Positions 2,837 through 56,016 of a DNA stretch of 64,000 bases are shown here, in pieces. The stretch covers positions 7,647-71,646 of the IMG/VR virus record IMGVR_UViG_3300024264_000024; one strand, 5' to 3'. How positions within the stretch are numbered: position 1 is the first letter of the stretch; every line of letters begins with the position of its first letter. This stretch comes from a virus. Below the pieces are notes generated by a model. That model did not search any database, was not told the origin of the DNA, and saw only the letters and a list, made by a program, of their open reading frames with translations. Both the position numbers and the translations under genes were made by a program.

Positions 2837-3016
2837 TTACTTTCCTTCGTACTGATCCTTTATTATACCATTCATAGTACCTAATACAGTAGTGTTTGGA
2901 TCAGGTCTAAAACCACCTTTACCTCCACCTTCTGAATACTTTACAATAGAACCAGATTCTCTTTTTATACCTGGTTCTACATTACCTAATACTTTATTTG
3001 TTTTTTCTTTTGACAT
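2837..3016 (-). CDS. 59-aa protein with YSEGG motif (not in ORF track)
   Basis: MSKEKTNKVLGNVEPGIKRESGSIVKYSEGGGKGGFRPDPNTTVLGTMNGIIKDQYEGK; last gene of the minus-strand operon. Confidence 0.65.
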   Translation of the reverse strand: MSKEKTNKVLGNVEPGIKRESGSIVKYSEGGGKGGFRPDPNTTVLGTMNGIIKDQYEGK

Positions 3017-9626: not shown

Positions 9627-9827
9627 TTATTTCTTTTTAGCTCTTCCCATGTTACCATAAGATGCTTTATTCATAAGTGGATCTAATACAGAACCGCCAG
9701 CCATAAAACCTTTTAGTCCACCACCTGCAGCCATTGATGTCATTGCTACTTTTTGTGGAGACATATCTCCATCTCCAGCTCCATAAGTTGCACCACCTAC
9801 GTTGTATTTTTCTTTTGCTTTTGCCAT
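9627..9827 (-). CDS. Small Gly-rich protein with three xxxGG motifs
   Basis: YNVGG, MAAGG and FMAGG in 66 aa; TAATG-coupled to the upstream holin. Confidence 0.7.
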   Translation of the reverse strand: MAKAKEKYNVGGATYGAGDGDMSPQKVAMTSMAAGGGLKGFMAGGSVLDPLMNKASYGNMGRAKKK

Positions 9828-11362: not shown

Positions 11363-11622
11363 TTCTTTCTATTTTTACTTCTCTTAGTTTTAGATGGTCC
11401 ACTATATGTGTTATGGGTTCCACCTCCTAATTTATAAGCTTGCTTTGATTCTACTCCTGTTTCATTGTTTCTTACAATTCTCTCAGCATTACCGCCTCTA
11501 TTCATCTTTTCTATTACAGAAGACATCATGATTTCTTCTAGCTCACCGCCAGATCTCATAAGCATCTTTGTTTTTTGTCTACTCATTTTTCCTTTTGATA
11601 GACATGGTCTTTTCTTTGCCAT
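11359..11622 (-). CDS. Small basic protein with three xxxGG motifs
   Basis: MRSGG, MNRGG and YKLGG in 87 aa. Confidence 0.7.
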   Translation of the reverse strand: MAKKRPCLSKGKMSRQKTKMLMRSGGELEEIMMSSVIEKMNRGGNAERIVRNNETGVESKQAYKLGGGTHNTYSGPSKTKRSKNRKK

Positions 11623-39035: not shown

Positions 39036-41861
39036 TTATATTCCCACCTTACCTGTATAAAACGGTACTGCCCACTTAGCTATTTTTCCTATTTCTAATC
39101 CTTTTTTACCTTCTACTGTTTTTTGAGTATTATATTCACCTGTGTTTCCGGCTGCTCTGTTTTTTCTATACTCTTCTTGAGCTGCAGTGAGTTGTTCATT
39201 AGAAGTTACTGCTCCCGGATAAAGTTGTTCCATTAGTTTATCAGGCATAGGTTTACCTGTTTTAATTTCATAGTCAGCAACTCTATCATAATAAGCATTT
39301 AATGCATCTTGTTGATTAGTCTTAACAAGCTTTCTACCATCTGTTGTAAATTCAGCATCCCCATATACTTGTGGGTTTATATTATAATTATCATAAAGCT
39401 GATTAAGATTATATGTATTAGCTGCATTAGTTGCACCTGCATTAAACAACTCATTAGCTTTGATCTTTCTTTTATTAGCATTTTGCTCATAGTTTTCTAA
39501 TGCTAATTGAGTATTATCATATACTCCTTGATTCATTTGATTATTAAACATATCAACTTTAAGATCTAACTGTGGCTGTAAACTTGCAACTCTATTCATA
39601 GTGTTAACATTCTTTTGATTTACATCTGTCTGAGCTTTTATATTACCTGCCATTGTTTTACCAAAAAGATCACTTGCTAATAAAGCCTGTGGACCACCTG
39701 CTGCAGTTAAAGCATCTCCTGCAGTTTTTAATGCTGAATTATTAGCACCTACTTGAGATGCCCAATCATCTAATACATAATCAATTTTTTGACGTTCAAG
39801 AGGTACACCAAAAGGAGTTCTTAATGTATCATCTAAAGAAGCTAAAGTGATTAAATTATTTTCATCTTGTGCCCACCATCTTTTTGGTATTCCTTCTGGT
39901 GTTTCTAACTCTATCTTTTTCTCAACTTCAGGTTCATCAGGAAGATCCATTGAATACCTTTCTTCTTTTGTAAAATCTACATCAAGTCTAGGTGTATTAT
40001 ATGTATGTAAACCTAAAGCTCCATCATAACCTTCTCCTTGTACATATCCATCTGAGCCTTTTTCCTTAAAATATGGAACATAAGGTATACCCATTGTTTC
40101 TGCTTCTTCTTTTCTTTTAGCTTCAGATTTTCTTTGAAACTCTGTCCATTGCTTTTTATATTGTGGTGTACCCCTTTGAGCTTTATAATCAAAGCCATCT
40201 ATTGTTTCTGTAACATCTCCCCATCTATCTTGAAAATCAAGTTGACTTTCTTCTAGCTCAATATCAGCAGAACCAAAACTTGATGTCCCTGTCTTTTTTT
40301 GTTTTCTGTCTCTTGAACCTTCTGATAGACTTCCATATCTATATCTACCTATTCCACTTTCATTTACTACATCACCTTGACCTTCTATATCTTCAGAATA
40401 AATTGGTACACCTTTACCATCTGTTGGTGTTCCAGAACCTGAACCTCTAGCATTAGTATTCTTTTCCCACTTAGATGTTCCTGCTTTAAAAATATCTATC
40501 TTACCATCTTTCTCTGTTATAGTATAACCTTCATCATGATACTTTTGTAATTTTTTATAGTTATCACTACCTTCTGGATATGGATTTTTAAAATTATCGT
40601 TAGCAGTAGTTACTACAGTACCATCTGATTGCTCACCTGATACTCCAAGATCAAGTGGTGGTTTCATGCCTGGGTTGATTGACAAGTCTCCTTGTAATGG
40701 TACTGTATTGAATGGATCATAATTTTCAACAGTAGGTTGTAAAGCTTGTCCATACATTTGTTTTTCTTCTTCTGTTAGATCACTTATTTTATCATTTAAT
40801 GAACCATCCATATTTCTATGCATATTATTTCTAATTACATAGTCTATATATGTAGCTCTATCTACATCTTGACCATTAATAGTATATGTTGATGTGGTTC
40901 TTTCTGCATTACCTTTTTGTGCTTTTTCTAAAAAATCACCAAGTTCAGAACCAAATTTTGCAGTTTGCATCATGTCATTGTTGGCAACATTTAAATCCAT
41001 TTGATCTATTTGACCTTGTGGTGGATTGCCTTCCATAGCCATTTGCTCTTCAGGTCCAACATTACCTTGTTGATTACCCTGTTGAGATTGTGCAATCATC
41101 ATTTGTAAAAATTGCAATTGCTCTTGTTCAGCTGGAGATAATGCTTCTATAGCTTTTTGTCTAGCTTGTTCAACACTAATCTTTTCCATTTTTGCAGTAA
41201 ACTCTAATGGATCTATTCCTGCAGATATTAAATAAGGATGAGATGCTAATGGTACACCATCTTCAAAATCTTTTTTAGACTCTTGCATAAATGCTAATTT
41301 AGATAAATCTTCCATATTCTTTTTTAACATAAGTTCTGCACTACGTGATGAAATATTATCAGCATAGTCAGAATTTAATTCAGCATAAAATTCATTTAAA
41401 CCAAAAGTGTTTGATATTTTAGCTGGTGTTTTTTTATCACCTCCCATACCAAACTCACTCATTTCATCTTTAGTAAATTTTAATTTTGGTGTATCAGAAT
41501 AAATAAAAGATTGTTCAGGTAAAAACATAGGAACTCCACCTTGAGAATGTCTAGGACCCCTTATGTTATATAATCCAAAATCTCCATTGTCATTTAAATC
41601 TGTCAATACAGTTTCTCCACCTTCTGCTTCTATGTTAGCATTATCTCTTGGAACACTAGATAAACTATACCTAACACTTTCATCAGATGTATTATTAAAT
41701 GTTGTGTCACCAACATAATTTTGTGGAGTTGTTACCAAACCATAATCAGCTTGATCACCCGTTCTTAGATCACCACCGTATCTCATTAACTTATCTTCTA
41801 CAACTTTACCATCAACAAGTTTAAATCCTTTAGGTAGTTTATTTATTTTTATTTTTTTCAT
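39036..41861 (-). CDS. Putative virion cargo protein (EAEGGE...GPRHSQGG domain)
   Basis: 941 aa; NIEAEGGETVL...GPRHSQGGVPMFLPEQSFIYSD domain; MRYGG, AKFG and AQKG motifs. Confidence 0.65.
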   Translation of the reverse strand: MKKIKINKLPKGFKLVDGKVVEDKLMRYGGDLRTGDQADYGLVTTPQNYVGDTTFNNTSDESVRYSLSSVPRDNANIEAEGGETVLTDLNDNGDFGLYNIRGPRHSQGGVPMFLPEQSFIYSDTPKLKFTKDEMSEFGMGGDKKTPAKISNTFGLNEFYAELNSDYADNISSRSAELMLKKNMEDLSKLAFMQESKKDFEDGVPLASHPYLISAGIDPLEFTAKMEKISVEQARQKAIEALSPAEQEQLQFLQMMIAQSQQGNQQGNVGPEEQMAMEGNPPQGQIDQMDLNVANNDMMQTAKFGSELGDFLEKAQKGNAERTTSTYTINGQDVDRATYIDYVIRNNMHRNMDGSLNDKISDLTEEEKQMYGQALQPTVENYDPFNTVPLQGDLSINPGMKPPLDLGVSGEQSDGTVVTTANDNFKNPYPEGSDNYKKLQKYHDEGYTITEKDGKIDIFKAGTSKWEKNTNARGSGSGTPTDGKGVPIYSEDIEGQGDVVNESGIGRYRYGSLSEGSRDRKQKKTGTSSFGSADIELEESQLDFQDRWGDVTETIDGFDYKAQRGTPQYKKQWTEFQRKSEAKRKEEAETMGIPYVPYFKEKGSDGYVQGEGYDGALGLHTYNTPRLDVDFTKEERYSMDLPDEPEVEKKIELETPEGIPKRWWAQDENNLITLASLDDTLRTPFGVPLERQKIDYVLDDWASQVGANNSALKTAGDALTAAGGPQALLASDLFGKTMAGNIKAQTDVNQKNVNTMNRVASLQPQLDLKVDMFNNQMNQGVYDNTQLALENYEQNANKRKIKANELFNAGATNAANTYNLNQLYDNYNINPQVYGDAEFTTDGRKLVKTNQQDALNAYYDRVADYEIKTGKPMPDKLMEQLYPGAVTSNEQLTAAQEEYRKNRAAGNTGEYNTQKTVEGKKGLEIGKIAKWAVPFYTGKVGI

Positions 41862-41863
41862 AA

Positions 41864-44581
41864 TTATAACATTTCTATGTCTGCACCAGCTGCAATTAGT
41901 TTTGCTAACATTGTTGAATCAACACTCACTGTTTCTCCTCCTTGTTGATTTCTCCAAGTGGCCCCGTCAGATGTCATTCCTCTGCTTTTTCTATGTTCAT
42001 TATCAAACTTTAATTTTTCCCCTTCTTCTTTACTATTACCTCTAAACATTTCTAAAAATGGTAATCCAGTCATAGTCGCAAGTATTGCAGGATCAATCAT
42101 AGCAAAACTGTTCATATATTCATTAAATGCATTGGGTCCATTCTGTGGTATATCATCAGCTCCAAATCCTTTAAAGCTTACATAAGGATTGGCTTTATCA
42201 CTATTTCCAAAATATGTTTTAAGTTTTCTTAAAGCACCAGGTAATTGTTCAACACCTTCTTTAATGAGTCTTCCTAACCCTGCCTTTCCCGCTATTGGAC
42301 CACCTGTAGCCAGATAAGCTTCTGGACCTGTAGATCCACCATAAGCAAGATTGCTAAGTATGTTATGCTGAACAGATGCAGGTAATGCTTTAAATCCAGC
42401 ATTATTAGTACCACCACCCATCTTGGATGTTACTACTCCTTGATTTAAATATAAACCTGTTGTTCTATCTGCTTCAGAACCTTTAGGTCCACCTTGAATA
42501 TTATTAGTTCCTCTAGAATTAAATGGATCTGTTTCAATTGCAAATAATTCATCAGCTACAATTCTACTTCTTTTATCTTTATCCTGGTTTAAAGCATTCT
42601 TTCTGTTTTTCAAAGGATTAAATATGTTTGCAGTAAGATCTATAATACCACCACTTACACCTTCAAAGCCTTTCATAAGACTGCTATCGTATGCTCTTTT
42701 AGCAAATCCACCTACTCCTCCAAAGTCTACATCTACTGTAGGTTTCACAACCTTATCATATGCAGATTGAAAGTCACCTGCTACACCAGTGCCATCACCC
42801 ATATCAATATCTATTCCCATATCAGGAATACCATCACCATCCTTATCCCATTCTGTTGGACTAATAATACCAGCAGGTTCAGGTAAAGGAACTGTGCTAG
42901 CTTCTGGTATTTGCTCTTCACTACCTATGCTTTCAACATAAGCTTGATACTCTTGTGGAGCGTTAGCACCACCTCTTCCAACAGAGTCTTGCATCACCCA
43001 CTCTTGGAAACTTAGTGTTTCAGTAGCATCTTCTGCAGGTTCTTCCATTGGGTTTGCAAAAGGTGCACCACTATCTGGAACACTAAATTGTGCTTTAGCC
43101 AATGAACCACCAAGTTGAAAACCTAATTTTTTTCTTAATGCCTCATATGTTGCTTTTGCTGTATCACCTAATAGATCTGTATTTTTTTCTATAAAATCTT
43201 TGTATTCTTCTTCTGTACCTTGAGGAATCTCAATCTTAGGTATATTGTTGTCTTCTAACCCTGCATTAACTAGATTACCTACTGCATCATACTGATCATC
43301 TGCTGTTGGGTTTTCAAAAATAAATTTTTTGTATGCAACCTGAGCATTGTTTAAATTCTCTTCAGTAACTACATCATCTAGATTTATATTGTAATTTGCA
43401 TTTGCATATTTATCAATTTTTGCATTTATTGCTTTTGGTTTTAAGTCTCTTAAATAACCATCTTTAGTTCCATCACCATCAAGGTCTTTACTACTAAAGG
43501 CATTGTTACCTACTCTTAAAACAGAATTAAAAGCATTCCCTAAAGAAAAACCATCTTTCTCATATAGGTTAGGAGAAACATATAATGGTCCTTGAGATAT
43601 AGTATTATTTACTTTTTTTATAGTGTTGTCTCCCTGTGTATTTTGTTCACCAAGAGTAGTGTTCATATTATTCATAAACTGAGTCATGAAATCAACTTCA
43701 TCTGTGTCCTGCCCTGCTTCACCTGCTGCTACTGCTGCCGCTGCTGCTTCCTTCTTTTGTAACTCAAGTCCATCATTTGCTTGAGGCATCATTGCAAACG
43801 GAAGTGCATTAGATGATGTAGCTGCACCAACTGGATATATCATATCTCCACCTTTTCTTGCTTTTTTACGTTCATCAGCATGAACATAACCATCTTCTTT
43901 TAATCTTAAATGATCTTCAATAGTATTTGCTTTTACAGCTTGTTGACCCTTGTACATCATATGAGCAGTAAATGCTTCTCCACCTTCTTCCTTTTTCCAT
44001 CCTGCAGCATTCTTTGCAAAATTAGCCATCTTAACTACAGATGGAGGGTAAGCCTTACTATTAGACATAACCTTGTTATATGCTTCCTTAACAGTCATAC
44101 CACGTGCTTTAGCCCATCTAGTAAACTTACCCTCATTTTTAGGATTTATTTCTATACCAGACTTAGCAATCATGGTCTCAGATATTTCTGTATCAATTGA
44201 TTCAGTTTCAACAGGTCCTTGTTGACGTTGCTCTATCTGTTGATTACGTGCTAATTGTTGAGGATTTTGATTTACTTCATTTGCACCAGCTTGTTTTTGT
44301 TGTGCTAATACTTGAACCTGCTCAAATAAAGTAACAACATCTTCTTGCTGATACCCAACCATCATAAATGCTTGACCAATAATTTGTTGATCAACTTCTT
44401 GTTGTACTAAACTCATTACTAGTTCTTCAGGTTTTGCACCATCTTCTAGTGATTGTTTAATAAACTCACTAATTTGTTGAACAGCAGGATCAACCTCTGG
44501 TTGCTGTAGCATACCAGGTTGTTCAGGAATCATTGCTCCTCCATCTTGTTTTACACTTTTTTTGTTTACTTTCAAACTCAT
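41864..44581 (-). CDS. Modular putative virion cargo protein with about ten xxxGG/AxxG motifs
   Basis: 905 aa of short modules separated by KQDGG, AKSG, KEEGG, ARKGG, FQLGG, SKMGG, LAYGG, LATGG and NQQGG. Confidence 0.65.
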   Translation of the reverse strand: MSLKVNKKSVKQDGGAMIPEQPGMLQQPEVDPAVQQISEFIKQSLEDGAKPEELVMSLVQQEVDQQIIGQAFMMVGYQQEDVVTLFEQVQVLAQQKQAGANEVNQNPQQLARNQQIEQRQQGPVETESIDTEISETMIAKSGIEINPKNEGKFTRWAKARGMTVKEAYNKVMSNSKAYPPSVVKMANFAKNAAGWKKEEGGEAFTAHMMYKGQQAVKANTIEDHLRLKEDGYVHADERKKARKGGDMIYPVGAATSSNALPFAMMPQANDGLELQKKEAAAAAVAAGEAGQDTDEVDFMTQFMNNMNTTLGEQNTQGDNTIKKVNNTISQGPLYVSPNLYEKDGFSLGNAFNSVLRVGNNAFSSKDLDGDGTKDGYLRDLKPKAINAKIDKYANANYNINLDDVVTEENLNNAQVAYKKFIFENPTADDQYDAVGNLVNAGLEDNNIPKIEIPQGTEEEYKDFIEKNTDLLGDTAKATYEALRKKLGFQLGGSLAKAQFSVPDSGAPFANPMEEPAEDATETLSFQEWVMQDSVGRGGANAPQEYQAYVESIGSEEQIPEASTVPLPEPAGIISPTEWDKDGDGIPDMGIDIDMGDGTGVAGDFQSAYDKVVKPTVDVDFGGVGGFAKRAYDSSLMKGFEGVSGGIIDLTANIFNPLKNRKNALNQDKDKRSRIVADELFAIETDPFNSRGTNNIQGGPKGSEADRTTGLYLNQGVVTSKMGGGTNNAGFKALPASVQHNILSNLAYGGSTGPEAYLATGGPIAGKAGLGRLIKEGVEQLPGALRKLKTYFGNSDKANPYVSFKGFGADDIPQNGPNAFNEYMNSFAMIDPAILATMTGLPFLEMFRGNSKEEGEKLKFDNEHRKSRGMTSDGATWRNQQGGETVSVDSTMLAKLIAAGADIEML

Positions 44582-44593
44582 AATATTATATTA

Positions 44594-44605
44594 TTAATAT
44601 ACAAA
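44594..44605 (-). promoter_or_regulatory. Candidate late promoter (TTTGTATATTAA)
   Basis: 12 nt upstream of the ATG at 44581. Confidence 0.5.
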
Positions 44606-44635
44606 TAATTAGGGAGATTCACTAATCTTTAGGGT

Positions 44636-47600
44636 TTAAGAATTGGGAATTATATAAGTCATAACATAATTAGAAGGTGTCATTCCTTGTTCTCTTGCTT
44701 TACTTAAATACTTTCTGTTTAACTTATCATATATGTTTTCTCCTTTAGAATCCATTTTAGTTCCTTCATATCTACCATCCATATAGTTTTTATAAATTAG
44801 TTTTTCTTCTATTTCTCCTCCTGCTTTCATTATATCTAATTGTTCTATATCTAAGTATTTAGAATTTTGTTCTACCCTTTTAGCATAATTACTTCTATTA
44901 TTCCATTTAGAAGGTAAGTACTTCATTGGATTCTTTTTTTGAGAAGGTGTTAATTGTTCATTATATCTAATACCTAATACTACAGCTGTAGCTATTGCAG
45001 ACTTTTCAGGATCTAACATATCTGAATTGTTTGTAATATTAAACTTCTTTAAAGCAGCTTTCTCAGTATCATTTAAAAATGAAAATCTTATTTGTGTATA
45101 TCCTACACTATTAGAATCACTATCAGCACCATATGTAGAATATTTAGATTGTACATCAGGACTTGATGATTGTTTTGGATTAAAATATTTATTAACAGCT
45201 CTACTAAAATTACCTGTTGCAGAATGAGTATCTCCATAATTTGATTCAGTACCGTATATTCCAAAAGCAATTTTTGCTATTTGATTATATATATCACTAG
45301 GTATTTGAGAAGTTTGCATAATCTTTTTCTTATTATCCATTAATGCATTTATAAATGGAATAGTTGTTTTATACAATTCATCTTCATCATTAAAATCAAG
45401 TGCAGTAAATATATCTTCTTTAAATTTTTCTACATCAAACTGTGCACGTATAGGTTTATAGTTTAATGTATTAATAGTATAGTTACCTCCTTGACCTTTA
45501 TATGTTTGACCATTTCTTTCATAGCTTTGGTAACTTTCTCTATTTTCTCTATTCATTCTTAATACAGCCTGACCATCAACCATTTCAAAAGCATTACCCT
45601 CATCATCAGGTAAAATATACACGTTTGTATTATTTGGTAAACCCATATCATATAAACCTTGCAGATCACTACATTTACCGTTTATACAACCATTAGAACT
45701 TCTGTTATCTGTTATATCATTATTATCAAAATACTTTTGTCTATAAGAAGGTGCTCCGTGAATTGCTGTACTAACTTCTATACCTGCTTCATTTATTAAA
45801 TTAAAACTTGGAGCATTCATATATTTTTTACTACTTGTTGGACTAGAATTACTAATTTTAAATTTACCTGCTCCTGTAGATAAATTACCTTTGCTCCAAT
45901 CTACTTGATATATACCATTTATCTTATCCTCCTCAGTAATTTTACCATCTCTATTTTTATCAATGGGTTGCGTAACAGTTTGTTGATCTCCTTCATTCTT
46001 TCCTGTCAACACTTCAAAATCAGTAATAACCTCATCACCATGGTAAAGTTTTAACCTTCCATTCTTTTTATCTATAACAACATATCTTTCATTAGGACTA
46101 TTTAATAATTGAGATTTAACAATTACTTGTTCATCAGCTAATGAATTAATGTCTTCATTGTTTTTCTTTAATACATCTGTACTTATCCATGATTCTTCAG
46201 CTAAAGGTACTTCTTCTCTGTAGTCTTCAGGTAATAAAATATCTTGATTAACACGTATCATGTTTGGATCAGATATGTTATTTATTTTAGCTAGCTTTTG
46301 ATATGACGTATTATGTCTTGAAGCAATCTTTCCTAACGTATCTCCTGGCTTAACTGTATAGCTAGAACGTGTATTGCCAAGTGATACACCTTGTGGCATT
46401 AATAACTCTTGATCAATACTAATCATACTTGGATTAGGTATATCATTTATACTTACTATTTCATCTACAGAAGTATTATAGTTTCTTGCTATTCTACTTA
46501 AGTTATCTCCTTTTTTTACTTTATAAATATTTTCACCACCATCTTGATAAAACTCATTAGTAATTTTCAAATAGTCTTTAGGAGTTTTATTTGGTTGCTT
46601 AACATTTTCTCCAAACAATTTTGGAAAGACCTCACCTAATGGCATACCATCTCTTATAACGTTTCCAAAGTATTTTCTAGTACCACCTCTACCTAAATAA
46701 TTAGATAATGCTGCTACATCTTCATATGAAAAATTCCAGTCATCACCTAGCTGATCTTTGTATTCAGCAGTTAATTCAAATGCATCTCTTAATAATGGAG
46801 TTGTTTCATTAGACTCTATTCCTTCATTTAAACGCATTCTAAAAAATCTGTCTTGTGCTTCTAAATCTTCTGAAAATTCTTCTCTTGTTCCTTTATATAA
46901 TTCTTCAATTTCAGAAAATCTTTGACCATAGTTTCCTGTTGCTGTAGAATATGGGTTCATCATTAATGTACCATCAGCACTTTCAACTCTTCTAAGACCT
47001 TTCATTAATCCTTCCACATTAATATTTAAATCTTTCCAAGAAGTAGGAGTAGAACCTTTATCAGTTCCAGGACCTTTTTGTTGTTGACTTAATCCATACC
47101 CCCCTATTGTTAATGGTACTGCTGCTCTATAAATATTTTTGTCCATTAAATTAAAATTACCATCGTTACCAAATAATGATTTAGCATATTTACCTTTTTT
47201 GTTATTATGAATAAGAACATCTCCTACACCAAAATCATATACATTTTTTATTGTAGCTCTATCTCCTCCTACTTGTTCAAGTAATGATGCCACATCATCT
47301 GTTGCAAATGTTTCTTTATATAAAGCATTAGGGTCATACATAACTGAGTTGCCTCCAGTTGGTCTAGCTCTTTTTGATGCTGCTTGTAATTCAGGAGACA
47401 TCATATCCCAAACATAAGGCTCATTAAGATTTGTCCAATCTCTACGTCCTGCATCAAATTGAATATGCTTAGCATCATCTACATTAGGTATAGCCAACTT
47501 GTATATACCACCTTCATCACCAAATTTAAGAGCACTTTTTTTATTACCACCAGCAGCTATAATATCATCTAATGTTTTTTGAGTAGATGTAAAATATGGA

Positions 47601-49648
47601 AAAGAACCACTCTTAAGAGCAAAATTACCATATTCACTTGCTAAGTCTAAATTTCCAGTAAACAAACCAGAACCTACCTTTGGTCTAACAACATCATTAT
47701 TGTATATACTAGAAAATTCTCCTCTCATACCGTCAGGTATATGTTGATCAGCTCCTCTATAAGTTACATCCATGCCATCAGGATATGCCTTTTTAAAGTT
47801 CTTACTATTTGTTTGAACAAACTGTTCTGCTGTACCTAAGCTTCCATCTGGTAATGTAAATGCAGATCCATCAGCGTTCTTCATCCATGATCCATCTGCT
47901 TTAGCAAGTTTCTCAATTTCTGTATATTCATCTACTAAACCTTTATTACTTGGAATGTCTTTATTCCATTTACCCCAATTTATTTCTGACTTAAAATTAT
48001 CAACATTCTTTAGTATATCATCTGTGCTTTTTGCTCCTTTAGAAGTTATGGTTTTTATTACTTTAGGTATTACCTTTTTACCTCCCTTTGCTAACATATT
48101 TTTAAGTACACCAACGCCTAAATAAGAAGTAGGATCTGTAAGCAAATCAACTCCAAGCCCTCCCCAAAAATTATCTATACCTAAAGTTTGTGATACTGTT
48201 TTTTGTTTTGCATCATCATCTAGTATAGTGGTATTATATAGATCAGGGAGAATATTACCCCAATTAAATTCACCATCTCCTTGGTCACTTAACCCTTCAA
48301 TACTTTCTCTAACTAAATTAGCAGGTATACCTAAAACTTGTAGTGCATTATCAGCAACAAGTAAAGGATTAAAAGTATTATTCAAAGTATTTAAAAACCA
48401 ATTCTTTTTCTTTTTACCAATAACCTCTACTTCAGGTAAATTTACAGTTTGGATATTGTCATCTTCTGTTGTTTCTCCTGCCTCTTGCATAACACGTCCA
48501 CCCATTCTTTTCATCTTCTCTAAGTTAGAGATAATGGTTTTATCTAGAGGGATTATTTGATATGCATCTCTTATGTCTGCACCTTTGTAGTCTTGTGTTA
48601 TAATAGCATCAAATCCATCATCAATAAGTTTCTGTACATCTTCTACTGAATAAGTTCTTGGTTGTTGTTCTATAAATGGGTTTTTAGGATTTATTTTTGC
48701 TCCCCATTTTTCTGCACCATAGTCATTAAATGCATAATTGTTTGGTGTAAAGAAACTTAAGTTTTGAGGAGCTTTCCAATTTGCATATTCTCTTGGATTT
48801 ACAAAATCAAGAGGCTCCATTATAGTTTCCGGATTGCTTGTATTTCTATAAAATATGTAATCTTCTGCAGGAGGTCTATTTAGTTGTTTAGGTGTATCAG
48901 AAAAAAATGACATTGCATTTGGAGTTTCTTCAACAACTTCTTCAACAACTTCATCTCCTTGTTTAGAGAATAGGTTTTTTATATAACTAGCTGCATCATC
49001 CATATATGGTGCTGCTTTTTTTGCTATGTTTTTAATTATACCTCTTTGTGCTTTAGGTAATGAACCTCCGTATTCAGCTTTTGGTTTCCAAGAACCTTCA
49101 CCAAACTTTATTGCACTTTCTCTATCAGTACCAAAGTCTATAACCTCACCTCTTCTTTTAGCTTCTTCATATACAGGCTTCCAATTTTTCTTTGCTTGTT
49201 CAGACATGTCAAGCCATGTGCCATCTTCATTTTGAAATAATGTAGGAAAAGAAAACCAGTTTTTTTTATCAAAAGTTTCCGTCTTCATTATGTGACTTGA
49301 CTCACCAATTACATTACCTTGTTCATCATAGTTTAGTCTAACACCATCTCTTTTTGGAAGTGGGCTATCTGATAGACCATATTGAGCCATAGGTATTTCC
49401 ATTACCATATCACCTGGAAATTGGTATTCATTCTCAGGGAACATCATTTGTGAATTGCCTAAGTTATCTGCACCCAATATAGGAAAGTCAACATTCTTCA
49501 TGCTTATATCCCCTGACGGAATCAGATTAACCGGATTGGTTTTATCTGGGCTATCATTTCTATATCCATCTACAGATATATATTGTGTTATATCTTGTAG
49601 GAATTCATTTGGTCCTCCTGGTAGTCCTATGCTTTTTTTATGTCCCAT
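44636..49648 (-). CDS. Polyvalent virion protein: ART-like x2, lysozyme-like, LysM x2, L,D-transpeptidase-like, lysozyme-like
   Basis: Two clear LysM repeats (YKVKKGDNLSRIA..., YTVKPGDTLGKIA...); YkuD motif AIHG...SNGCIN; RVES...STATGNYG and TESNYG...SVGYTQ lysozyme-like motifs; YR...FF/LF ART-like segments. Confidence 0.75.
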   Translation of the reverse strand: MGHKKSIGLPGGPNEFLQDITQYISVDGYRNDSPDKTNPVNLIPSGDISMKNVDFPILGADNLGNSQMMFPENEYQFPGDMVMEIPMAQYGLSDSPLPKRDGVRLNYDEQGNVIGESSHIMKTETFDKKNWFSFPTLFQNEDGTWLDMSEQAKKNWKPVYEEAKRRGEVIDFGTDRESAIKFGEGSWKPKAEYGGSLPKAQRGIIKNIAKKAAPYMDDAASYIKNLFSKQGDEVVEEVVEETPNAMSFFSDTPKQLNRPPAEDYIFYRNTSNPETIMEPLDFVNPREYANWKAPQNLSFFTPNNYAFNDYGAEKWGAKINPKNPFIEQQPRTYSVEDVQKLIDDGFDAIITQDYKGADIRDAYQIIPLDKTIISNLEKMKRMGGRVMQEAGETTEDDNIQTVNLPEVEVIGKKKKNWFLNTLNNTFNPLLVADNALQVLGIPANLVRESIEGLSDQGDGEFNWGNILPDLYNTTILDDDAKQKTVSQTLGIDNFWGGLGVDLLTDPTSYLGVGVLKNMLAKGGKKVIPKVIKTITSKGAKSTDDILKNVDNFKSEINWGKWNKDIPSNKGLVDEYTEIEKLAKADGSWMKNADGSAFTLPDGSLGTAEQFVQTNSKNFKKAYPDGMDVTYRGADQHIPDGMRGEFSSIYNNDVVRPKVGSGLFTGNLDLASEYGNFALKSGSFPYFTSTQKTLDDIIAAGGNKKSALKFGDEGGIYKLAIPNVDDAKHIQFDAGRRDWTNLNEPYVWDMMSPELQAASKRARPTGGNSVMYDPNALYKETFATDDVASLLEQVGGDRATIKNVYDFGVGDVLIHNNKKGKYAKSLFGNDGNFNLMDKNIYRAAVPLTIGGYGLSQQQKGPGTDKGSTPTSWKDLNINVEGLMKGLRRVESADGTLMMNPYSTATGNYGQRFSEIEELYKGTREEFSEDLEAQDRFFRMRLNEGIESNETTPLLRDAFELTAEYKDQLGDDWNFSYEDVAALSNYLGRGGTRKYFGNVIRDGMPLGEVFPKLFGENVKQPNKTPKDYLKITNEFYQDGGENIYKVKKGDNLSRIARNYNTSVDEIVSINDIPNPSMISIDQELLMPQGVSLGNTRSSYTVKPGDTLGKIASRHNTSYQKLAKINNISDPNMIRVNQDILLPEDYREEVPLAEESWISTDVLKKNNEDINSLADEQVIVKSQLLNSPNERYVVIDKKNGRLKLYHGDEVITDFEVLTGKNEGDQQTVTQPIDKNRDGKITEEDKINGIYQVDWSKGNLSTGAGKFKISNSSPTSSKKYMNAPSFNLINEAGIEVSTAIHGAPSYRQKYFDNNDITDNRSSNGCINGKCSDLQGLYDMGLPNNTNVYILPDDEGNAFEMVDGQAVLRMNRENRESYQSYERNGQTYKGQGGNYTINTLNYKPIRAQFDVEKFKEDIFTALDFNDEDELYKTTIPFINALMDNKKKIMQTSQIPSDIYNQIAKIAFGIYGTESNYGDTHSATGNFSRAVNKYFNPKQSSSPDVQSKYSTYGADSDSNSVGYTQIRFSFLNDTEKAALKKFNITNNSDMLDPEKSAIATAVVLGIRYNEQLTPSQKKNPMKYLPSKWNNRSNYAKRVEQNSKYLDIEQLDIMKAGGEIEEKLIYKNYMDGRYEGTKMDSKGENIYDKLNRKYLSKAREQGMTPSNYVMTYIIPNS

Positions 49649-52600
49649 TATCTTTGTGATAGTAAAAGTTTAGTATTATTTAATCTCAATAACATCTTTC
49701 TATTTCCAGACACATTTTTTCTAAGTATAACATTATTTGAGTAATGTCTAAACTTTTTACGCTGTGTTGCTGATTTAGCATAGTTAATATTAGTTGAATT
49801 TAAAGGTCTGATGTATCCATTACAATCTGTATTAAATATAGACTGTTGAGTTATTACTCCTGATGGATCAGGGAACTCACCTCTATTATTTGTTACATCC
49901 CAAAATTGATTAAATCTAAATTTATGTTCTACTTTAGAAGATAATATATCTATGTTGTTAGCATTTATAATTGGATAATTTAAATTACCCCATGGATCAT
50001 TTGTAGCTTGTTGATTAATAACTAGCAATCCAGAAGTCTGATCATTATTATATACTATAGCTGCATCAAAATTAAAATTTAAATCTTCCCATTTATCACC
50101 ACCACACATATTGTATTGAGGATCTCCTTTGTATACATATGATTCTAATTGATATTCAAAACTTCTAATTGTATTTACCGCTTGCCCTGTATTAGATATT
50201 AAATCTATTTCCCATGGATAGTCAACATTATAAAAATTAGCAAATGAATCACACCTAACATTATGTCTCCAAAAACCACCAACTTCATAATTAGGTATAG
50301 TACTTATGTAAAAGAAATAATTACATTGTCTATCACTTACAAAATTTGGATCTCCTACTTGATATATTAAAGGAGCACTATCTGGACATGTACCTAATTC
50401 TGTAGTTACTGTACCTGGTATTGTAGCGGGTGGACATTCACAAGTTACCTTTCTACATATAGGAGGAGTAACATCATCACATACACCTGAGTCAGCTGTA
50501 TATGTATTGGTTGCTGGGTCTAAATAAACTTTAGTATATCCTGTAGGACACTCACACACAAATGGTGTTGAACATACATCTCCTGCAATTTGATTAGCTG
50601 ATGCATTTAATTCACCAACAACATCAGTATTCATTGCATATTGATTTGGACCTGGTATAGAATTAGGAACATCATATGTTGTATTAGAAATACTATCTAA
50701 TAATATTGGATCATCAGGTACTGCATTACTGTTACCACAGAATACTGCATAAATTTCTTGCTTAGTTGCATCTTGTAAATCTATATCTGCTGATTGATTT
50801 GCTCCTGCCGCCCAAGCTCCAGTATTAGTTGCTTGAGGAGGATTATTTGGAACATTAGGAGATTGCATAGCAGCTATACCTGTAGCTTCAGTACCATCAG
50901 TTCCATCCGTAACAACAATTAAAATTTGTTTGAAAGAAGGATCTTGAGTTCTAGCTGGATATTGAGCAGCATAAGAAGAGTTTGCTTTATCATTTAATTG
51001 ACCTAATCCTCCAGTACCACTAAATGGATTTGCTGCATTAATAGCTGCTTCAGCACTAGTTGAATTAGTAGTATTCCAATTAGCACTATATAAAGCAATT
51101 AGTCCTGCACCAGTAGCATTACTACTCATACTTAAAGAACCTTGATTTAAATGCATACTTTGGGTACCCCAACCAGTAATACCAACTTGCATTGTTCCTG
51201 CAGCTAATGAATCTCTAACATTTGGATTAGCCATAAATACATCTAACCAACGCATCTGTGCTGTAGCAGCTGAATTATTACCCATATTACCACCACCAGT
51301 TTGATTACCAGCAGAATCAAAAGTCATGGGTGTATAATTAATATTACCAGTACTTCCTGACCAATCTATAGCAATCACAATATCTAGTAAACAGTTTGTT
51401 GCACCACCTGTTACTGTTGCTGCTAATTCATCAATATTTATTTCTGCACCAATAGTTTCATTTACACTTTGCTCACATAAATTTGTAACTGGATTAAAAT
51501 TATATCCAGGAGGACACTGAGGTACTGTTGTTGTTGCACTGCTTGTTGTAAAGAAATGATTAATGCTTGGTAAGGCTAATTGAGGATGCCAGTCATGAAA
51601 TGAAATCCACGCTTTTAATTTAGGATCATATGATATAGTCCATGAGCAATCATCAAAGTATATTGGATCTCCAATGTCAACGTTAAGACTTCCATAAACT
51701 CCTGAAGATATAGTTACAGGTTTTGTTAATCCATCTGTAAATACTGCACCGTCTATATATGCTGGTTTTAATTGGTAATCTTTTTTCATAAAGTAGACTA
51801 TATCATCTACTGAATCATACATTACTTGACAACCAACACCGTTTACTGGGTTATCTACCCACACAGAATTTTCTGAATTAGGAAATTGTTTTATAAATTT
51901 AGAAGGTAAATATTTAGCAAACCACCATTTCATTCCAGCATTAGATATAGGATCTAAAGCTTTACCACCGTAATGAAATATTTTTCCTTGTGCTTGAGAC
52001 ATAAAGAATAATCCCATTGGTGTATTTATAACACCTCTCAAACTTTCCATTGATCCGTACTCAGTAGATATATCAGCGTTAGCAATATTTTGTAAAGGTT
52101 GATTAAATAATTTACCATCTCCTATTGTAACGTTAGTACCTGAACCTAATTTTAAAGCATCAACACCTTGAAATAGTTGAGGAGACATATAAGGGAAAAA
52201 TATTATTGCACCTGATTTGCTTATAGGTTTAATTACACTAACAGCATTTTTAAAGTCTTTATAATTAAAATTTAAAAACACTCTCCAATAATCTCTTCTT
52301 GCTTCATTTTGAGCTTGCAATGAATAAATCAATCTCTTAGGATAATTAATAAAACATTGCTCACTAACTAATGGATCATAATCTCTAAGCTGTAGTGCAC
52401 CAAATGTACTTAATTGTGTTACAAACTTTGATGGGCTTAATGATTCATCATACTTATAAAAGTTACCTGACTTCTCAATCTTAGCATGAAAGAGTTCATC
52501 TATATCATTGTTATTATATACATCATATATTTTTTTAGCAGGATGTTCTTCCCAATCTCTTTGATCTAAATTAACTTCTGATTCAACATAGAAATCTAAT

Positions 52601-55600
52601 ATACCATTAGTATGAGTGTACATATATGCAAACTCCATTGCTAACATTGGATTAGGATCACTACTTCCTTTCATTATTCTATTCCATGCAGTATTCCCAC
52701 ATGATTGATTACCTCTATCTAAATAAAATAAATCTCCTGGCATAGCTTCACTTAATTGGCCTGGTTGAAATACTCCAAGACCAATTATCTCATCTGCCAA
52801 TGGTGTTATATCATATCTTTGTGAGTTTAACCAAAACCTTGGGTAAGGTAGATTTACATATAGTGAATAATCAAATGTAAACTCATTAGGTTGACCAATA
52901 AGAAAGTTAGAGAATACAGGCATAATTACTTTCTCAGTAAATCTACCAACAAAAGTATCCCCTGCAAAAATTGGTCTGCTTGAATATATTGTTGCTTCAG
53001 GTGCATCAAGATCTAACAGCTCAAGACAACCTCTCATAGGAACTTGTTTTATACCATCTAGTTGACCATATTGATTATCAAAATTATATTTCAATGCTCC
53101 ATAGTGAGCTGATATAGCTGCTTTTTTACTTTCTTTAGGATCTAATAAATAATTGTTACTCCATTTAATTCCAGTACCAGCACTATTAACATATCCACCT
53201 ACACAAAATCTAGACTTATCTTCTACATCTGGATTATCAATATCATCTTTTAATGCAACTGCTACTGTTTCAGGTCTAAATAAATTGTTTATTTTATAAT
53301 TACCATCATCAAACATTTGAAAAGATGATCCTAAATAATTTGAAGCAGTATTTTTAATTCTCCATAATCCTGAATTTACTGGTGCAAAATTTGTAAACAA
53401 ACCATATGAATTATATTTCCATGCAAAATCAGATTCTTTAATTAAATTATAAAATAATTCAATCATCTCATTTCCTCCTAAAGCAATGTTTGCTCTAGAA
53501 ACTGTTGCTGATATTATTGTTCTTAATAGTAATGGCATTGAAGACAACGGTGTTGTTGTTTCTTGTGATGATTCTTCATAACCACCCTGGATACCAGGTA
53601 TATCTCCTTGATTTTGACCAGCTATGCTTTTTATTGTTTGTTGAGCATAAAAAAGAGCACCACCAGTATATAAATCAGCAACACCTGCTACTGTTTCAAA
53701 TATTGCTTCCAGGACCTCATTTATCACTGTTGAAGCTCCATTACTTGCTGCAGTAGCTGTAAGATATGCTGCCATAGCAAGACCTGGTTGATTACCAACA
53801 CCAGCAAATCCTCCAAATGTTCCTGATTGAGAAGATAGGTTTCCTCTTGGTCCTACCACTTTCTGTTTTTGTGAACCTCTAATTTGCTGCATTGCATACC
53901 CTACACCAAGAACTGCACTGATAATTGCAGCACCTCCTCTTAGTAATTTAAACTTAGGGTGTTCTTCTGAAGGTATAAAGTATCCACTAGAATTTCCTGA
54001 AACTTGTCCATACAATCTAGTTTCATATGCATTTAAAAATGGTTTAGTAAACATTAACTCCGGTGAAGATAATGTAAATACTTTTTTAGAATATCCACTT
54101 AGCGGTGGGTAATCACGTATTGATTCTGACCAACTATCACAACCCTTAGTTATATTAGTACCACTAGTACCTGAACCAGTATGAAAATATGGATCTGGTC
54201 TTAAATCATTATAAGGATGATTAGGATATAATCCTTGTACACTTCCTCCTATAAGGTTTTCTGCATTAGGTAAATCATACTCACGCATATTTCTAAATAA
54301 CCCTTTAGCAAGGATAGATCTAGCACCTTGTCTTGAACCTCTAAGCAATTCATATCCTACTACATTTGTAATGTATGTACCATCATTATATTTTGGTCTT
54401 TTTATATTTGCAAACTCAACACCTAAAACATTAATTAAATCAGCATTTGTACTAGATAAATGTAAATATGGTCCTAATTCTTCTGTTGGCATTTTATGGT
54501 GTCTAATGAACTCACCACATAAATCATATTGTGTATCATTAGTTCCTCCAATATTTACTCCTGTTTCTGGATCAACATAAGTTGAATTCCATATGTCTGG
54601 TTTTCTTGTTGGGTATCTTTCTGATGATTGCCAGTATCCCATTTCACCACGGGCTATAACTATCCCTGCACCATCAACAGGTTCTGCTAACCCTGACGCT
54701 GTAGTAGATGCTGTATTATATACTTTAAATAATAAATCTCCATCAGGATCTAAAACATTATTTCCATATACTTTCTCATTCTCCATTGTTCCATTGTACA
54801 TTTCTGCAGCTCTTCCAGGTATATGGTATGAAGAAGATCTTTCACCTGTATTATATATCCATCTAATAAAAAATGCATATTGTTCATCACGCATCAAACC
54901 AGTCTTATTACCACCTTTGTAGTAATATTCACTTTGTACTTGATTAACAACCCAGTTTACTTTAATTTGATTTGCTATAGGTTGATAGTTAAAATCAAAT
55001 TGTTCTGTTGGCCCTTGTCTTATTAACCAGTCATTTACAACAAACATTGACTCAGATTTTTCATAAGCTGGACTCATCTGAGGAAGTTCTGCAATAGGGA
55101 TATTTTTTAATTCAACTGCAATAAAATCTATATTGACTTCTTTTATTTCTGTACTATATATTCCTATTTGTTTTGCATCTGTTTGACCTTGGTTTCTTCT
55201 TAGTATTACTAATTCAAAATAAAAATAATCTTGATCAATATTAGAAAATGATACATCTAATGAACCATCTGTACCTAAATGACTCCATAAACTTTGTACA
55301 TTAGACATGCCTATGTAATCTGTTACTCTCTGGTCATTTTCAATATATGCTACAAAAGCCTGATATGTTCCATTTGCTAACATACCACTATCTGTAGATT
55401 TATTTAACTTGACACAAGGAGTATCTAATAATGGAGCAAGTCTTATTTGCTCACAATCTAACATCTTAGGTTCTATAACTTCAAATACTGTACAAGGTAA
55501 TCCATCAACATCTAACCCAGATACTTTAATTTTTTTATAAGGTATATTGTCTAGGTTTAATGAGCGTGAAGGATTATTGCCGTCATCCCAATAAACTTGC

Positions 55601-56016
55601 CATGAACAATCAAAATTTTCTTTTGCTGCTCCAGTTATTAAAAACTTCTTGCTAAAATTTAAACATGTATCATTTACTAATGTAGTATACTTACATTCAC
55701 TATCATCAAATAAACCTATTTCAGAATTTATGTTATCAGTAGAATAAACAATCCACTCATCACCGTATCTATGTATAGCTCCTATAACTGTATAGGGTAT
55801 TACTCCACATAATAAATTTGATGGCTCATTTCCAATAATACCTAAGTCACCATCTTCAGAATTATTTGCAACATTTCTAGCATGCCACCATGCTTGGTTA
55901 TTCTCCATAGATGGAGTAATATCCTTATTCATCCCTTTTACAAATGTATTTGTATTTACAGATGAGCTAGTTTGACTGCTTGGTGCACTCTTTGGTGTAG
56001 ACTTTTTCTTTGCCAT
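49648..56016 (-). CDS. Tail stabilisation/muzzle-like protein with inserted vWA and EGF-like modules
   Basis: crAss-like signatures FVKGMNKD...WHARN, GLMRDEQYAFFIRW, SWTISYD...WISFHDW and FWRHN...ANFY; MIDAS DWSGS lies in the insert. Confidence 0.75.
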   Translation of the reverse strand: MAKKKSTPKSAPSSQTSSSVNTNTFVKGMNKDITPSMENNQAWWHARNVANNSEDGDLGIIGNEPSNLLCGVIPYTVIGAIHRYGDEWIVYSTDNINSEIGLFDDSECKYTTLVNDTCLNFSKKFLITGAAKENFDCSWQVYWDDGNNPSRSLNLDNIPYKKIKVSGLDVDGLPCTVFEVIEPKMLDCEQIRLAPLLDTPCVKLNKSTDSGMLANGTYQAFVAYIENDQRVTDYIGMSNVQSLWSHLGTDGSLDVSFSNIDQDYFYFELVILRRNQGQTDAKQIGIYSTEIKEVNIDFIAVELKNIPIAELPQMSPAYEKSESMFVVNDWLIRQGPTEQFDFNYQPIANQIKVNWVVNQVQSEYYYKGGNKTGLMRDEQYAFFIRWIYNTGERSSSYHIPGRAAEMYNGTMENEKVYGNNVLDPDGDLLFKVYNTASTTASGLAEPVDGAGIVIARGEMGYWQSSERYPTRKPDIWNSTYVDPETGVNIGGTNDTQYDLCGEFIRHHKMPTEELGPYLHLSSTNADLINVLGVEFANIKRPKYNDGTYITNVVGYELLRGSRQGARSILAKGLFRNMREYDLPNAENLIGGSVQGLYPNHPYNDLRPDPYFHTGSGTSGTNITKGCDSWSESIRDYPPLSGYSKKVFTLSSPELMFTKPFLNAYETRLYGQVSGNSSGYFIPSEEHPKFKLLRGGAAIISAVLGVGYAMQQIRGSQKQKVVGPRGNLSSQSGTFGGFAGVGNQPGLAMAAYLTATAASNGASTVINEVLEAIFETVAGVADLYTGGALFYAQQTIKSIAGQNQGDIPGIQGGYEESSQETTTPLSSMPLLLRTIISATVSRANIALGGNEMIELFYNLIKESDFAWKYNSYGLFTNFAPVNSGLWRIKNTASNYLGSSFQMFDDGNYKINNLFRPETVAVALKDDIDNPDVEDKSRFCVGGYVNSAGTGIKWSNNYLLDPKESKKAAISAHYGALKYNFDNQYGQLDGIKQVPMRGCLELLDLDAPEATIYSSRPIFAGDTFVGRFTEKVIMPVFSNFLIGQPNEFTFDYSLYVNLPYPRFWLNSQRYDITPLADEIIGLGVFQPGQLSEAMPGDLFYLDRGNQSCGNTAWNRIMKGSSDPNPMLAMEFAYMYTHTNGILDFYVESEVNLDQRDWEEHPAKKIYDVYNNNDIDELFHAKIEKSGNFYKYDESLSPSKFVTQLSTFGALQLRDYDPLVSEQCFINYPKRLIYSLQAQNEARRDYWRVFLNFNYKDFKNAVSVIKPISKSGAIIFFPYMSPQLFQGVDALKLGSGTNVTIGDGKLFNQPLQNIANADISTEYGSMESLRGVINTPMGLFFMSQAQGKIFHYGGKALDPISNAGMKWWFAKYLPSKFIKQFPNSENSVWVDNPVNGVGCQVMYDSVDDIVYFMKKDYQLKPAYIDGAVFTDGLTKPVTISSGVYGSLNVDIGDPIYFDDCSWTISYDPKLKAWISFHDWHPQLALPSINHFFTTSSATTTVPQCPPGYNFNPVTNLCEQSVNETIGAEINIDELAATVTGGATNCLLDIVIAIDWSGSTGNINYTPMTFDSAGNQTGGGNMGNNSAATAQMRWLDVFMANPNVRDSLAAGTMQVGITGWGTQSMHLNQGSLSMSSNATGAGLIALYSANWNTTNSTSAEAAINAANPFSGTGGLGQLNDKANSSYAAQYPARTQDPSFKQILIVVTDGTDGTEATGIAAMQSPNVPNNPPQATNTGAWAAGANQSADIDLQDATKQEIYAVFCGNSNAVPDDPILLDSISNTTYDVPNSIPGPNQYAMNTDVVGELNASANQIAGDVCSTPFVCECPTGYTKVYLDPATNTYTADSGVCDDVTPPICRKVTCECPPATIPGTVTTELGTCPDSAPLIYQVGDPNFVSDRQCNYFFYISTIPNYEVGGFWRHNVRCDSFANFYNVDYPWEIDLISNTGQAVNTIRSFEYQLESYVYKGDPQYNMCGGDKWEDLNFNFDAAIVYNNDQTSGLLVINQQATNDPWGNLNYPIINANNIDILSSKVEHKFRFNQFWDVTNNRGEFPDPSGVITQQSIFNTDCNGYIRPLNSTNINYAKSATQRKKFRHYSNNVILRKNVSGNRKMLLRLNNTKLLLSQR

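Follow-up and report, generated by a model that had tools for sequence, protein, structure and literature searches.

A bipartite and apparently undescribed junction peptide in the modular cargo-type proteins of a marine crAss-like phage

It is still an open question how crassviruses, which rank with the most abundant phages, store several megadaltons of cargo protein and then eject them. For crAss001, Bayfield et al. (2023; PMC10172136) described the cargo proteins C1 and C2 together with RNA-polymerase-associated giants; in the available text of that study, C1 (gp45) is one chain from the tail barrel to the capsid, with mass spectrometry peptides from the connecting stretch, and its residues 425-552 are modelled as a portal-bound domain. 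According to the accessible part of a 2026 paper on phage N4 (PMC13434306), the crassvirus ejection proteins are still to be resolved. Here we analyse a stretch of 64,000 nucleotides (the window; positions 7,647 to 71,646 of IMG/VR record IMGVR_UViG_3300024264_000024) from a marine crAss-like phage, in which three consecutive cargo-type genes carry a short bipartite peptide, the joint, at the borders of their modules. It is apparently an undescribed junction peptide of crassvirus cargo proteins: a literature text search for LPKAQ found no phage paper, a search on crAss-like cargo proteins and a linker motif returned only an N4 paper that describes no joint, and the available texts of PMC10172136 and PMC5512222 describe no junction peptide. 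With 13 residues at every module border, the peptide can serve to trace cargo genes and their modules in metagenomes. Its copies are defined sites for mutagenesis, and it offers a direct test of the two modes of cargo delivery, in long threaded chains or in pieces.

The source record is viral, 71.6 kb long and 63% complete by CheckV, and its muzzle and ring genes identify it by Pfam as crAss-like. On the minus strand of the window, the tail ring genes CrAss_Ring_2 and CrAss_Ring_1 are followed by the gene for a muzzle protein of 2122 amino acids (aa) (49648..56016 (-); Pfam crAss_MUZ, E 7e-24; PHROG virion structural protein) and then by open reading frames (ORFs) of 1670, 905, 941, 1079, 4659 and 1922 aa; the head genes lie outside the contig. 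Since the cargo genes begin directly after it, the muzzle gene fixes their context. The same post-muzzle position is held in crAss001 and cr128_1 by C1, C2 and the RNA-polymerase-associated giants and, as in the case of C1, the window's cargo genes start directly downstream of the muzzle on the same strand. The first three encode P0001 (1670 aa; 44636..49648), with a constant N-domain, variable modules, two LysM domains, YkuD and a constant C-tail; P0002 (905 aa; 41864..44581), a string of mini-domains; and P0003 (941 aa; 39036..41861), with a conserved N-domain (residues 1-255), a Q/P-rich spacer, a degenerate joint, a variable middle and a conserved C half (these genes and all their joints lie on the minus strand). 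To judge from their sequences, P0001, P0002 and P0003 are modular cargo-type proteins, most likely carried in the particle.

Database matches were few. Pfam recognised two LysM domains and YkuD in P0001, to which the 120 relatives listed add ART-PolyVal, SLT and PG_binding_1; P0002, P0003 and the 1079-aa protein matched nothing in Pfam and PHROGs, and the 4659-aa protein nothing in Pfam. In tblastn searches of GenBank phages, P0001 gave only LysM matches (179 records, none covering at least 80% of the protein), P0002 two cr128_1 records that cover 8% of it and P0003 no match. Profile searches of Protein Data Bank (PDB) sequences gave one chance-level match (Shedu, E 0.29) for alignment A1 of the P0002 family and none for alignment A2 of the P0003 family.

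Similarity to a described cargo protein was found in a P0002 mini-domain (residues 142-203; 43973..44158) that ends in the joint KEEGG-E. It is homologous to residues 234-294 of cr128_1 C1 (hhalign 97.9%, E 5e-13), and residues 128-197 match crAss001 gp45 366-425 (hhalign 74%, E 2.7e-5) over one mini-domain only; in this comparison, which covered P0002 and P0003, P0003 showed no similarity to C1. For the portal-bound domain of gp45 (425-552) no homologue was detected: the hhalign match stops at gp45 425, and no crAss001 chain came up when PDB sequences were searched with A1 and A2. Like the window's proteins, gp45 and cr128_1 C1 carry half-joints of the form aromatic-x-GG near structured segments (SAYGG 206-210, AEGGG 261-265, AFGG 425-428, FAYGG 559-563). 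However, these gut C1 proteins lack the LPKAQxG half and, unlike C1, the window's cargo is divided among three genes, whose products of 905-1670 aa include enzyme modules.

Other systems resemble the locus in part. GG-directed processing of viral polyproteins is known for adenovirus adenain and for pS273R of African swine fever virus. The joint resembles their sites, and it is a resemblance only, in that Gly-Gly stands at unit borders of proteins presumed to be inside the virion, whereas its consensus is longer and bipartite and no clan CE protease (C5, C48) was found in five records, namely the window's record and four relatives rated 99-100% complete. The internal proteins of T4 and phiKZ undergo head-protease processing and have capsid-targeting sequences. 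Like them, the window's proteins are of a packaged or injected type with short N-terminal leaders, and GGE would fit a Gly-x-Glu site, but their joints are internal and repeated, not just N-terminal, and no S78 family was present in the five records; unlike double-glycine leader systems, these records also contained no C39 peptidase domain. With the polyvalent proteins of Iyer et al. (2017; PMC5512222), P0001 shares the assembly of many unrelated effector domains, here two LysM and YkuD, in one phage polypeptide. The available text of that paper describes no junction peptide ('linker' and 'crAss' each occur 0 times) and predicts zincin processing of such proteins, whereas MPTase-PolyVal was not detected in the window.

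Form and occurrence of the joint

A preliminary description of the window had reported about 20 copies of a motif, xxxGG or A[QK]xG, in the three cargo genes. All 19 copies that it spelled out (6, 9 and 4 in P0001, P0002 and P0003) were found in place, in ORFs that agreed with those stated. As written, the motif is too loose and its enrichment unconvincing; plain GG is not enriched. When the three proteins were shuffled 5000 times with their composition kept, the 33 GG dipeptides observed (27.5 +/- 4.8 expected; observed/expected ratios per protein of 1.26, 1.53 and 0.67) were reached in 758 shuffles, and the seven occurrences of A[QK]xG (2.9 +/- 1.7 expected) in 129. Two patterns defined post hoc gave stronger results, with five [KQ]xGG[SED] versus 0.74 expected (3/5000 shuffles) and two [LIMF][PA]KAQ versus 0.02 expected (1/5000 shuffles). 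Enrichment over a glycine-matched background was thus not obtained for plain GG but was obtained for the refined joint.

Since relatives show a bipartite form, xxxGG and A[QK]xG are, on the alignments, the two halves of one joint, of which KAEYGGSLPKAQRG is the full form. From the same comparisons, a real consensus can be written as [YFK]-[KQ]-x-G-G-[SE], a spacer of 0-8 residues and L-P-K-A-Q-x-G, either half of which also occurs alone. The compound form GGSL[PA]KAQ was correctly noticed as common to two proteins (GGSLPKAQ at P0001 residues 194-201, GGSLAKAQ at P0002 491-498). In seven diverse P0001 relatives out of the 120 listed, GG contexts include RKEGGESKSLPKAQFG, YKELGGSLPKAQKG, EYQKGGELSLPKAQDG and KKHGGSLPEAQWG. 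A regular expression for the full joint found 67 copies in 45 of the 120 relatives listed for P0001, and matched 2 and 0 of the 120 listed for P0002 and P0003, respectively; LP[KEVIRT]AQ occurred 75, 26 and 5 times in these sets versus about 0.5 expected in each from composition (0.52 for the P0001 set), copies related by descent being counted repeatedly.

For an independent scoring, 47 IMG/VR joints were used, after removal of close relatives, to build a matrix of the six positions that precede GG. The 32 cargo GG sites scored higher than the 90 GG sites in the remaining 19 ORFs of the window (Mann-Whitney p = 0.0067), with scores above 0 at 9/32 and 6/90 sites, respectively (Fisher p = 0.0034). 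With the same matrix, the cargo GG sites of G002, a complete relative of 124 kb, also ranked above the rest (p = 2.8e-5). After GG, Glu, Asp or Ser is favoured in cargo proteins and Thr, Asn or Ala elsewhere.

The back-translated pattern GG[ST][LF]PKAQxG was then scanned in IMG/VR and in 596 Gb of cellular genomes, with the in-frame count and the cellular scan as controls for the viral result. IMG/VR yielded 62 matches in 57 stretches, and all 62 were read in the frame of an ORF, of 157-2689 aa; KKYGG, FKQGG and YQDGG are examples of what stood upstream. Cellular genomes yielded 24 stretches, five of them in open frames of at least 250 aa and two with a phage-like context (L090, L094), both on short low-GC contigs of metagenome-assembled genomes; a host-type motif was rejected, as these genomes gave chance-level matches only. 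The muzzle gene (crAss_MUZ) was present in 14 of the 15 joint-bearing records tested, the exception being a 63%-complete fragment. Within G002 (122 ORFs from an ATG-only caller), the full joint was confined to the two genes that directly follow the muzzle, with 3 copies in one and 1 in the other. The preliminary description had seen no comparable copies in the non-structural genes, of which the window has few. These scans show a joint restricted to crass-like viruses and, in a complete genome, limited to post-muzzle genes.

The joint is conserved between proteins with dissimilar flanks and across phages of less than 45% identity. Among 55 distinct instances there were 49 distinct 24-nucleotide cores, with ordinary A/T-ending codon choices. 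Because these cores vary at synonymous sites, selection acts on the peptide and not on the DNA, and a DNA-level recombination signal was rejected for the same reason.

Modules and their borders

The preliminary description had placed the P0001 copies at apparent domain borders, and the homology breaks agree with this. BLASTP of P0001 against the 120 relatives listed gave 315 high-scoring segment pairs (HSPs) at up to 85% identity, with 432 internal ends. As many as 258 of these (60%) fell within 12 residues of the six P0001 sites named earlier, an interval amounting to 11.2% of the protein, and 12 of the 17 ten-residue bins heavy in HSP ends touched such a site, which was matched by 0 of 20000 random placements. 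Seven further GG of P0001 (496, 700, 713, 765, 794, 988 and 1387) are regarded as ordinary in-domain glycines, because only 0-2 HSP ends lie near them.

P0001 begins with a family-conserved N-terminal leader that ends in IGLPGG (residues 7-12; 49613..49630; G8, L9, G11, G12 and P13 conserved to at least 90% in alignment A3). The half-joint PMAQYG (residues 87-91; 49376..49390) closes the N-domain and is followed by residues 92-193 and then AEYGGSLPKAQRG, the full joint KAEYGGSLPKAQRG spanning residues 190-203 (49040..49081). In P0250, P0251 and P0265, which lack the 92-193 module, the text reads PMAAGGGSLPKAQRG, so that a module here sits inside a joint. Further half-joints are MKRMGG (residues 379-384; 48497..48514; 16 HSP ends within 12 aa), YQDGG at the border between the helical domain and the first LysM (residues 1034-1038; 46535..46549; 47 HSP ends) and MKAGG before the constant C-tail (residues 1607-1611; 44816..44830; 48 HSP ends). 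QQKG (residues 856-859; 47072..47083) stands just before a lysozyme-like helical domain, modelled at 867-1035, and HSP starts pile up at 861-880.

In P0002, whose family consensus comprises KKSVKQQGG, WKKEEGGE, GGxLPKAQ, SKxGGG, AYGG and KxQxGGETV, a leader ending in KQDGG (residues 11-15; 44537..44551), corresponding to KKSVKQQGG, precedes the gp45-like mini-domain with its KEEGG. The full joint FQLGGSLAKAQF (residues 488-499; 43085..43120), corresponding to GGxLPKAQ, is followed by the half-joints SKMGG (residues 719-723; 42413..42427), LAYGG (residues 745-749; 42335..42349), which precedes a unit of the AYLANRDRVIKR type in relatives, and NQQGG-E (residues 878-883; 41936..41950) before an invariant C-terminal helix. 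In alignment A1, where 27 of 495 matches were aligned with P0002, the two glycines are kept in 27 and 25 sequences for both KEEGG and SKMGG and in 26 and 26 for NQQGG (G881, G882 and E883 at least 90%); the glycine of AKSG is kept in 27. ARKGG retains its first glycine only (26/27), and LATGG is not conserved (G in 1/27). The stretch that follows NQQGG, E-TVSVDSTMLAKLIAAGADIEML at the P0002 C-terminus (residues 883-905; window 41864-41935(-)), is nearly invariant across the family, and its ETVxV part is reminiscent of a TonB box.

For P0003, 27 of 753 matches were aligned (A2). MRYGG (residues 26-30; 41772..41786) keeps both glycines in 27 of 27 relatives, with M26, G29 and G30 invariant in all 28 sequences. 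The degenerate joint AKFG-SELGDFLE-KAQKG (residues 301-317; 40911..40961), with A301 and G304 invariant (the glycine of AKFG in 27 of 27), reads A[KR][FY]G-SELxDFxxKAQxG in the family, and in an alignment block the P0003 relatives P0156 and P0160 have mini-modules of the P0002 type inserted at this place. Extra segments in relatives of P0002 and P0003 are bracketed by GGE or GG copies, and the mini-modules AYLA[NR]RD..IK and GF[KR]ALP..VQ occur in both families. Taken together, these comparisons show that the joint marks the borders of modules that relatives gain, lose and swap.

Several tiny units were observed to recur among the P0002 and P0003 relatives, to move from one family to the other and, in many cases, to appear more than once in the same protein. 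Examples are AYLA[NR]RD[RA][VA]IK, GG-xNN[PA]GFKALPxxVQHNIL, GGE-FKPH[FM]MYKGxRKI[RK]A...GYxH, which is modelled as a hairpin and helix (P0002 203-240; predicted local distance difference test, pLDDT, about 80), and GG-[TI]PGQQIPGMPTK[AE]QLD. The P0002 relatives P0010 and P0066 carry an N-terminal Met/His-rich insert of the type HQMPDGTMMPGATHGE, reminiscent of metal-binding Met motifs. A minimal member of the P0001 family, of 416 aa (L037 1937-3187(-)), consists of the constant N-domain, a module with HExxH (HEQSH), a full joint and the constant C-tail. A 940-aa cargo protein of G002 combines a P0001-type N-domain at its start with a P0002-like helix at its end, from which it follows that end modules are shuffled too.

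AlphaFold models of P0002 and of P0001 residues 1-1100 were poor (mean pLDDT 47.1 and 47.2) and were therefore used only to see where confident mini-domains end. In both models they end at joints. Of the 14 GG of P0002, 13 fall within segments with pLDDT below 50 (563 of 905 residues overall), including FQLGGSLAKAQF in segment 482-520, and a short dip at 194-202 is exactly WKKEEGGEA. In P0001, all five listed sites covered by the model overlap such segments (671 of 1100 residues overall), and a dip of four residues, 1036-1039, coincides with the GG of YQDGG, with the helical domain on one side and LysM on the other. In Foldseek searches of the P0001 1-1100 model against the PDB, the best matches were MltD (E 0.019) and LysM chains, none reached E 0.001 or below, and no protease fold was among the matches.

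Cut or uncut

Our favoured reading, to which we assign a probability of roughly 0.45, is that the joint is an uncut connector read by a partner, that is, a flexible break between independently folding modules combined with a conserved handle. The joint would stay uncut in the particle and, as it separates modules that fold independently, the chain could be kept partly unfolded in storage and then driven through the tail with its N-terminus leading, as has been proposed for crAss001 gp45. The Lys/Gln half of the joint would serve as the handle for some conserved component of the phage, for instance the portal, tail barrel or capsid interior or a chaperone of assembly, and new modules would come as cassettes bringing their own joint. 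We rank a processing site second and a mere cassette edge third, and consider chance negligible.

Several points in favour of an uncut chain come from crAss001. Since P0002 128-197 aligns with gp45 366-425, the P0002 sequence KKEEGG would correspond to NAFGG at gp45 424-428 (G427-G428), and since residues 425-552 of gp45 are modelled (PMC10172136, as far as available), this half-joint lies inside a built segment. The available text of the same paper contains 0 occurrences of cleav-, proteoly- or protease. The part of PMC6235969 at hand reports crAss001 virion gel bands from 15 to >300 kDa, including 85, 100, 150 and 270 kDa, known here by size alone, and the detection of gp47, gp49 and gp50; because bands of 150, 270 and >300 kDa are present, the giant cargo proteins of crAss001 are probably not chopped up. 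These structural, textual and gel data argue against wholesale cutting in the gut phage. The N4 virion RNA polymerase, zincin domain included, is described in the accessible text of PMC5512222 as packaged unprocessed, and that of PMC11835377 holds nothing on crassvirus proteases.

A number of observations weigh against an uncut connector. The structural evidence for an uncut chain comes from a gut phage that has half-joints only (aromatic-x-GG) and thus covers no full GG...LPKAQxG joint. For a plain hinge a consensus of 13 residues would be superfluous, a docking tag would not have to recur at every junction, and a conserved peptide at each module border looks like the cleavage sites of viral polyproteins. 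All three window proteins start with a short conserved leader ending in GG, and small basic proteins of other phages (L040, L044, L059) carry several joints. The cell-wall modules of P0001 (LysM, YkuD and a weak lytic-transglycosylase-like fold) and the modules that relatives replace by ART-PolyVal might need separating. The models suggest only weakly that the joint peptide is disordered, because their mean pLDDT is 47. The failure to find a known protease family is likewise weak evidence, since most ORFs of these phages match nothing.

The junction peptide is real; cleavage at the joint is unproven. Of the polyprotein idea put forward earlier, modular cargo with a conserved border peptide was found, but cutting of this peptide was not shown; a head-packaging tag, the alternative named with it, would likewise be a candidate role only. 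The joints may nevertheless be proteolytic sites, although this is less probable than the uncut connector. The polyproteins would then be cut after GG, within LPKAQxG or at both, either while the head matures or once they have been ejected. A phage enzyme that has escaped recognition, perhaps the HExxH region of the 4659-aa protein, or an enzyme of the host would do the cutting, and effectors and small peptides would be freed. A joint at every major module border and its long conserved consensus, more than a hinge or a lone docking tag would call for, speak for processing, as do the leaders ending in GG, the preference for Glu, Asp or Ser after GG in cargo, the small basic multi-joint proteins, one intact HExxH in the neighbouring giant protein and the existence of GG-directed viral proteases such as adenain and pS273R. 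Zincin-mediated processing of polyvalent proteins is, moreover, predicted in the available text of PMC5512222.

Against processing stand the crAss001 data given above, namely the gp45 half-joint inside a modelled segment, the large virion bands and the silence of the structural paper in its available text, together with the outcome of the protease searches in the five records. Peptidase_S78, C48, C39 and C5 were each found in 0/5 records, the C5 control scoring only below the cut-off; Peptidase_S77 was also found in 0/5, but its control gave no match either, so that this search is uninformative. Between its portal and capsid genes, G002 encodes an acidic, helix-rich protein of 405 aa that matches no family and resembles a coiled-coil scaffold rather than a protease. 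The preliminary description had named a zincin domain as candidate protease. A single HExxH does exist in the cargo block, HEAFH at residues 2200-2204 of the 4659-aa protein (29114..29128 (-)), but this region has no Pfam match, and MPTase-PolyVal was not detected in the protein by Pfam. The protein-atlas clusters nearest to it contain LPD23 (20% of members, score 0.94) and LPD1, both of them domains of polyvalent proteins, and not MPTase, which offers a possible lead, not an identification. A predicted complex of the ring proteins R1 and R2 with P0001 180-240 scored 0.07 and 0.13 versus a mark of 0.32, without controls, and gives no verdict on binding.

The narrower proposal that the joints are sites of a protease unrecognised by any profile, possibly the HExxH region, and that the cargo genes are true polyproteins, seems to us rather unlikely. 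If it were true, the cargo genes would give rise to a variable mixture of small peptides and enzymes for injection, and the single threaded gp45 chain of crAss001 would need to be re-read as separate fragments.

A joint with neither partner nor cut, the inherited edge of mobile cassettes in the form of a recombination scar or a shared linker spreading with modules, is improbable. Modules do come and go with a copy of the joint at their edge, and the joints within P0359 resemble each other (AQWGALG twice, AQEGxE three times). However, the free synonymous variation (49/55 distinct cores) means that DNA homology is not what is kept, and the peptide is kept between proteins with unrelated flanks and in phages below 45% identity. 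Finally, the notion that GG dipeptides of glycine-rich proteins were strung into a pattern by a reader agrees with a GG count not above composition (33 versus 27.5; 758/5000 shuffles), with several GG inside domains and with the unconserved LATGG, but for the refined joint it was refuted by the in-frame IMG/VR matches, the matrix scores and the clustering of HSP ends, and the counts in relatives and the cellular scan also speak against it.

Other genes of the window and its relatives

Joint-like sites were also noticed in small Lys-rich ORFs, considered putative genes, at window 9627-9827(-) (66 aa; KYNVGG, FMAGGS), 11359-11622(-) (87 aa; LMRSGGE, MNRGGN, AYKLGGG) and 2837-3016(-) (59 aa; YSEGGG). 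Small ORFs of a similar kind lie at 76525-76728 and 76921-77193 of G002 (YAMYKKGG).

The 1922-aa protein of the post-muzzle block (window 15971-21739(-)) matches a PD-(D/E)xK nuclease (PF12705, E 5e-5) and has no HExxH. An ORF at window 93-863(+) matches Cpn60/TCP-1 (PF00118, E 2e-30, profile positions 285-484), which suggests a phage-encoded chaperonin whose start may fall upstream of the window. In G002, a ferritin-like protein (PF00210, E 4e-21) is encoded within the head-gene module (L074 9907-10473(+)). Another record, G006 (that of L061; 245,646 bases, rated 100% complete), has two separate muzzle genes with open frames of 2730 and 4226 aa and may be a chimeric or double-genome contig.

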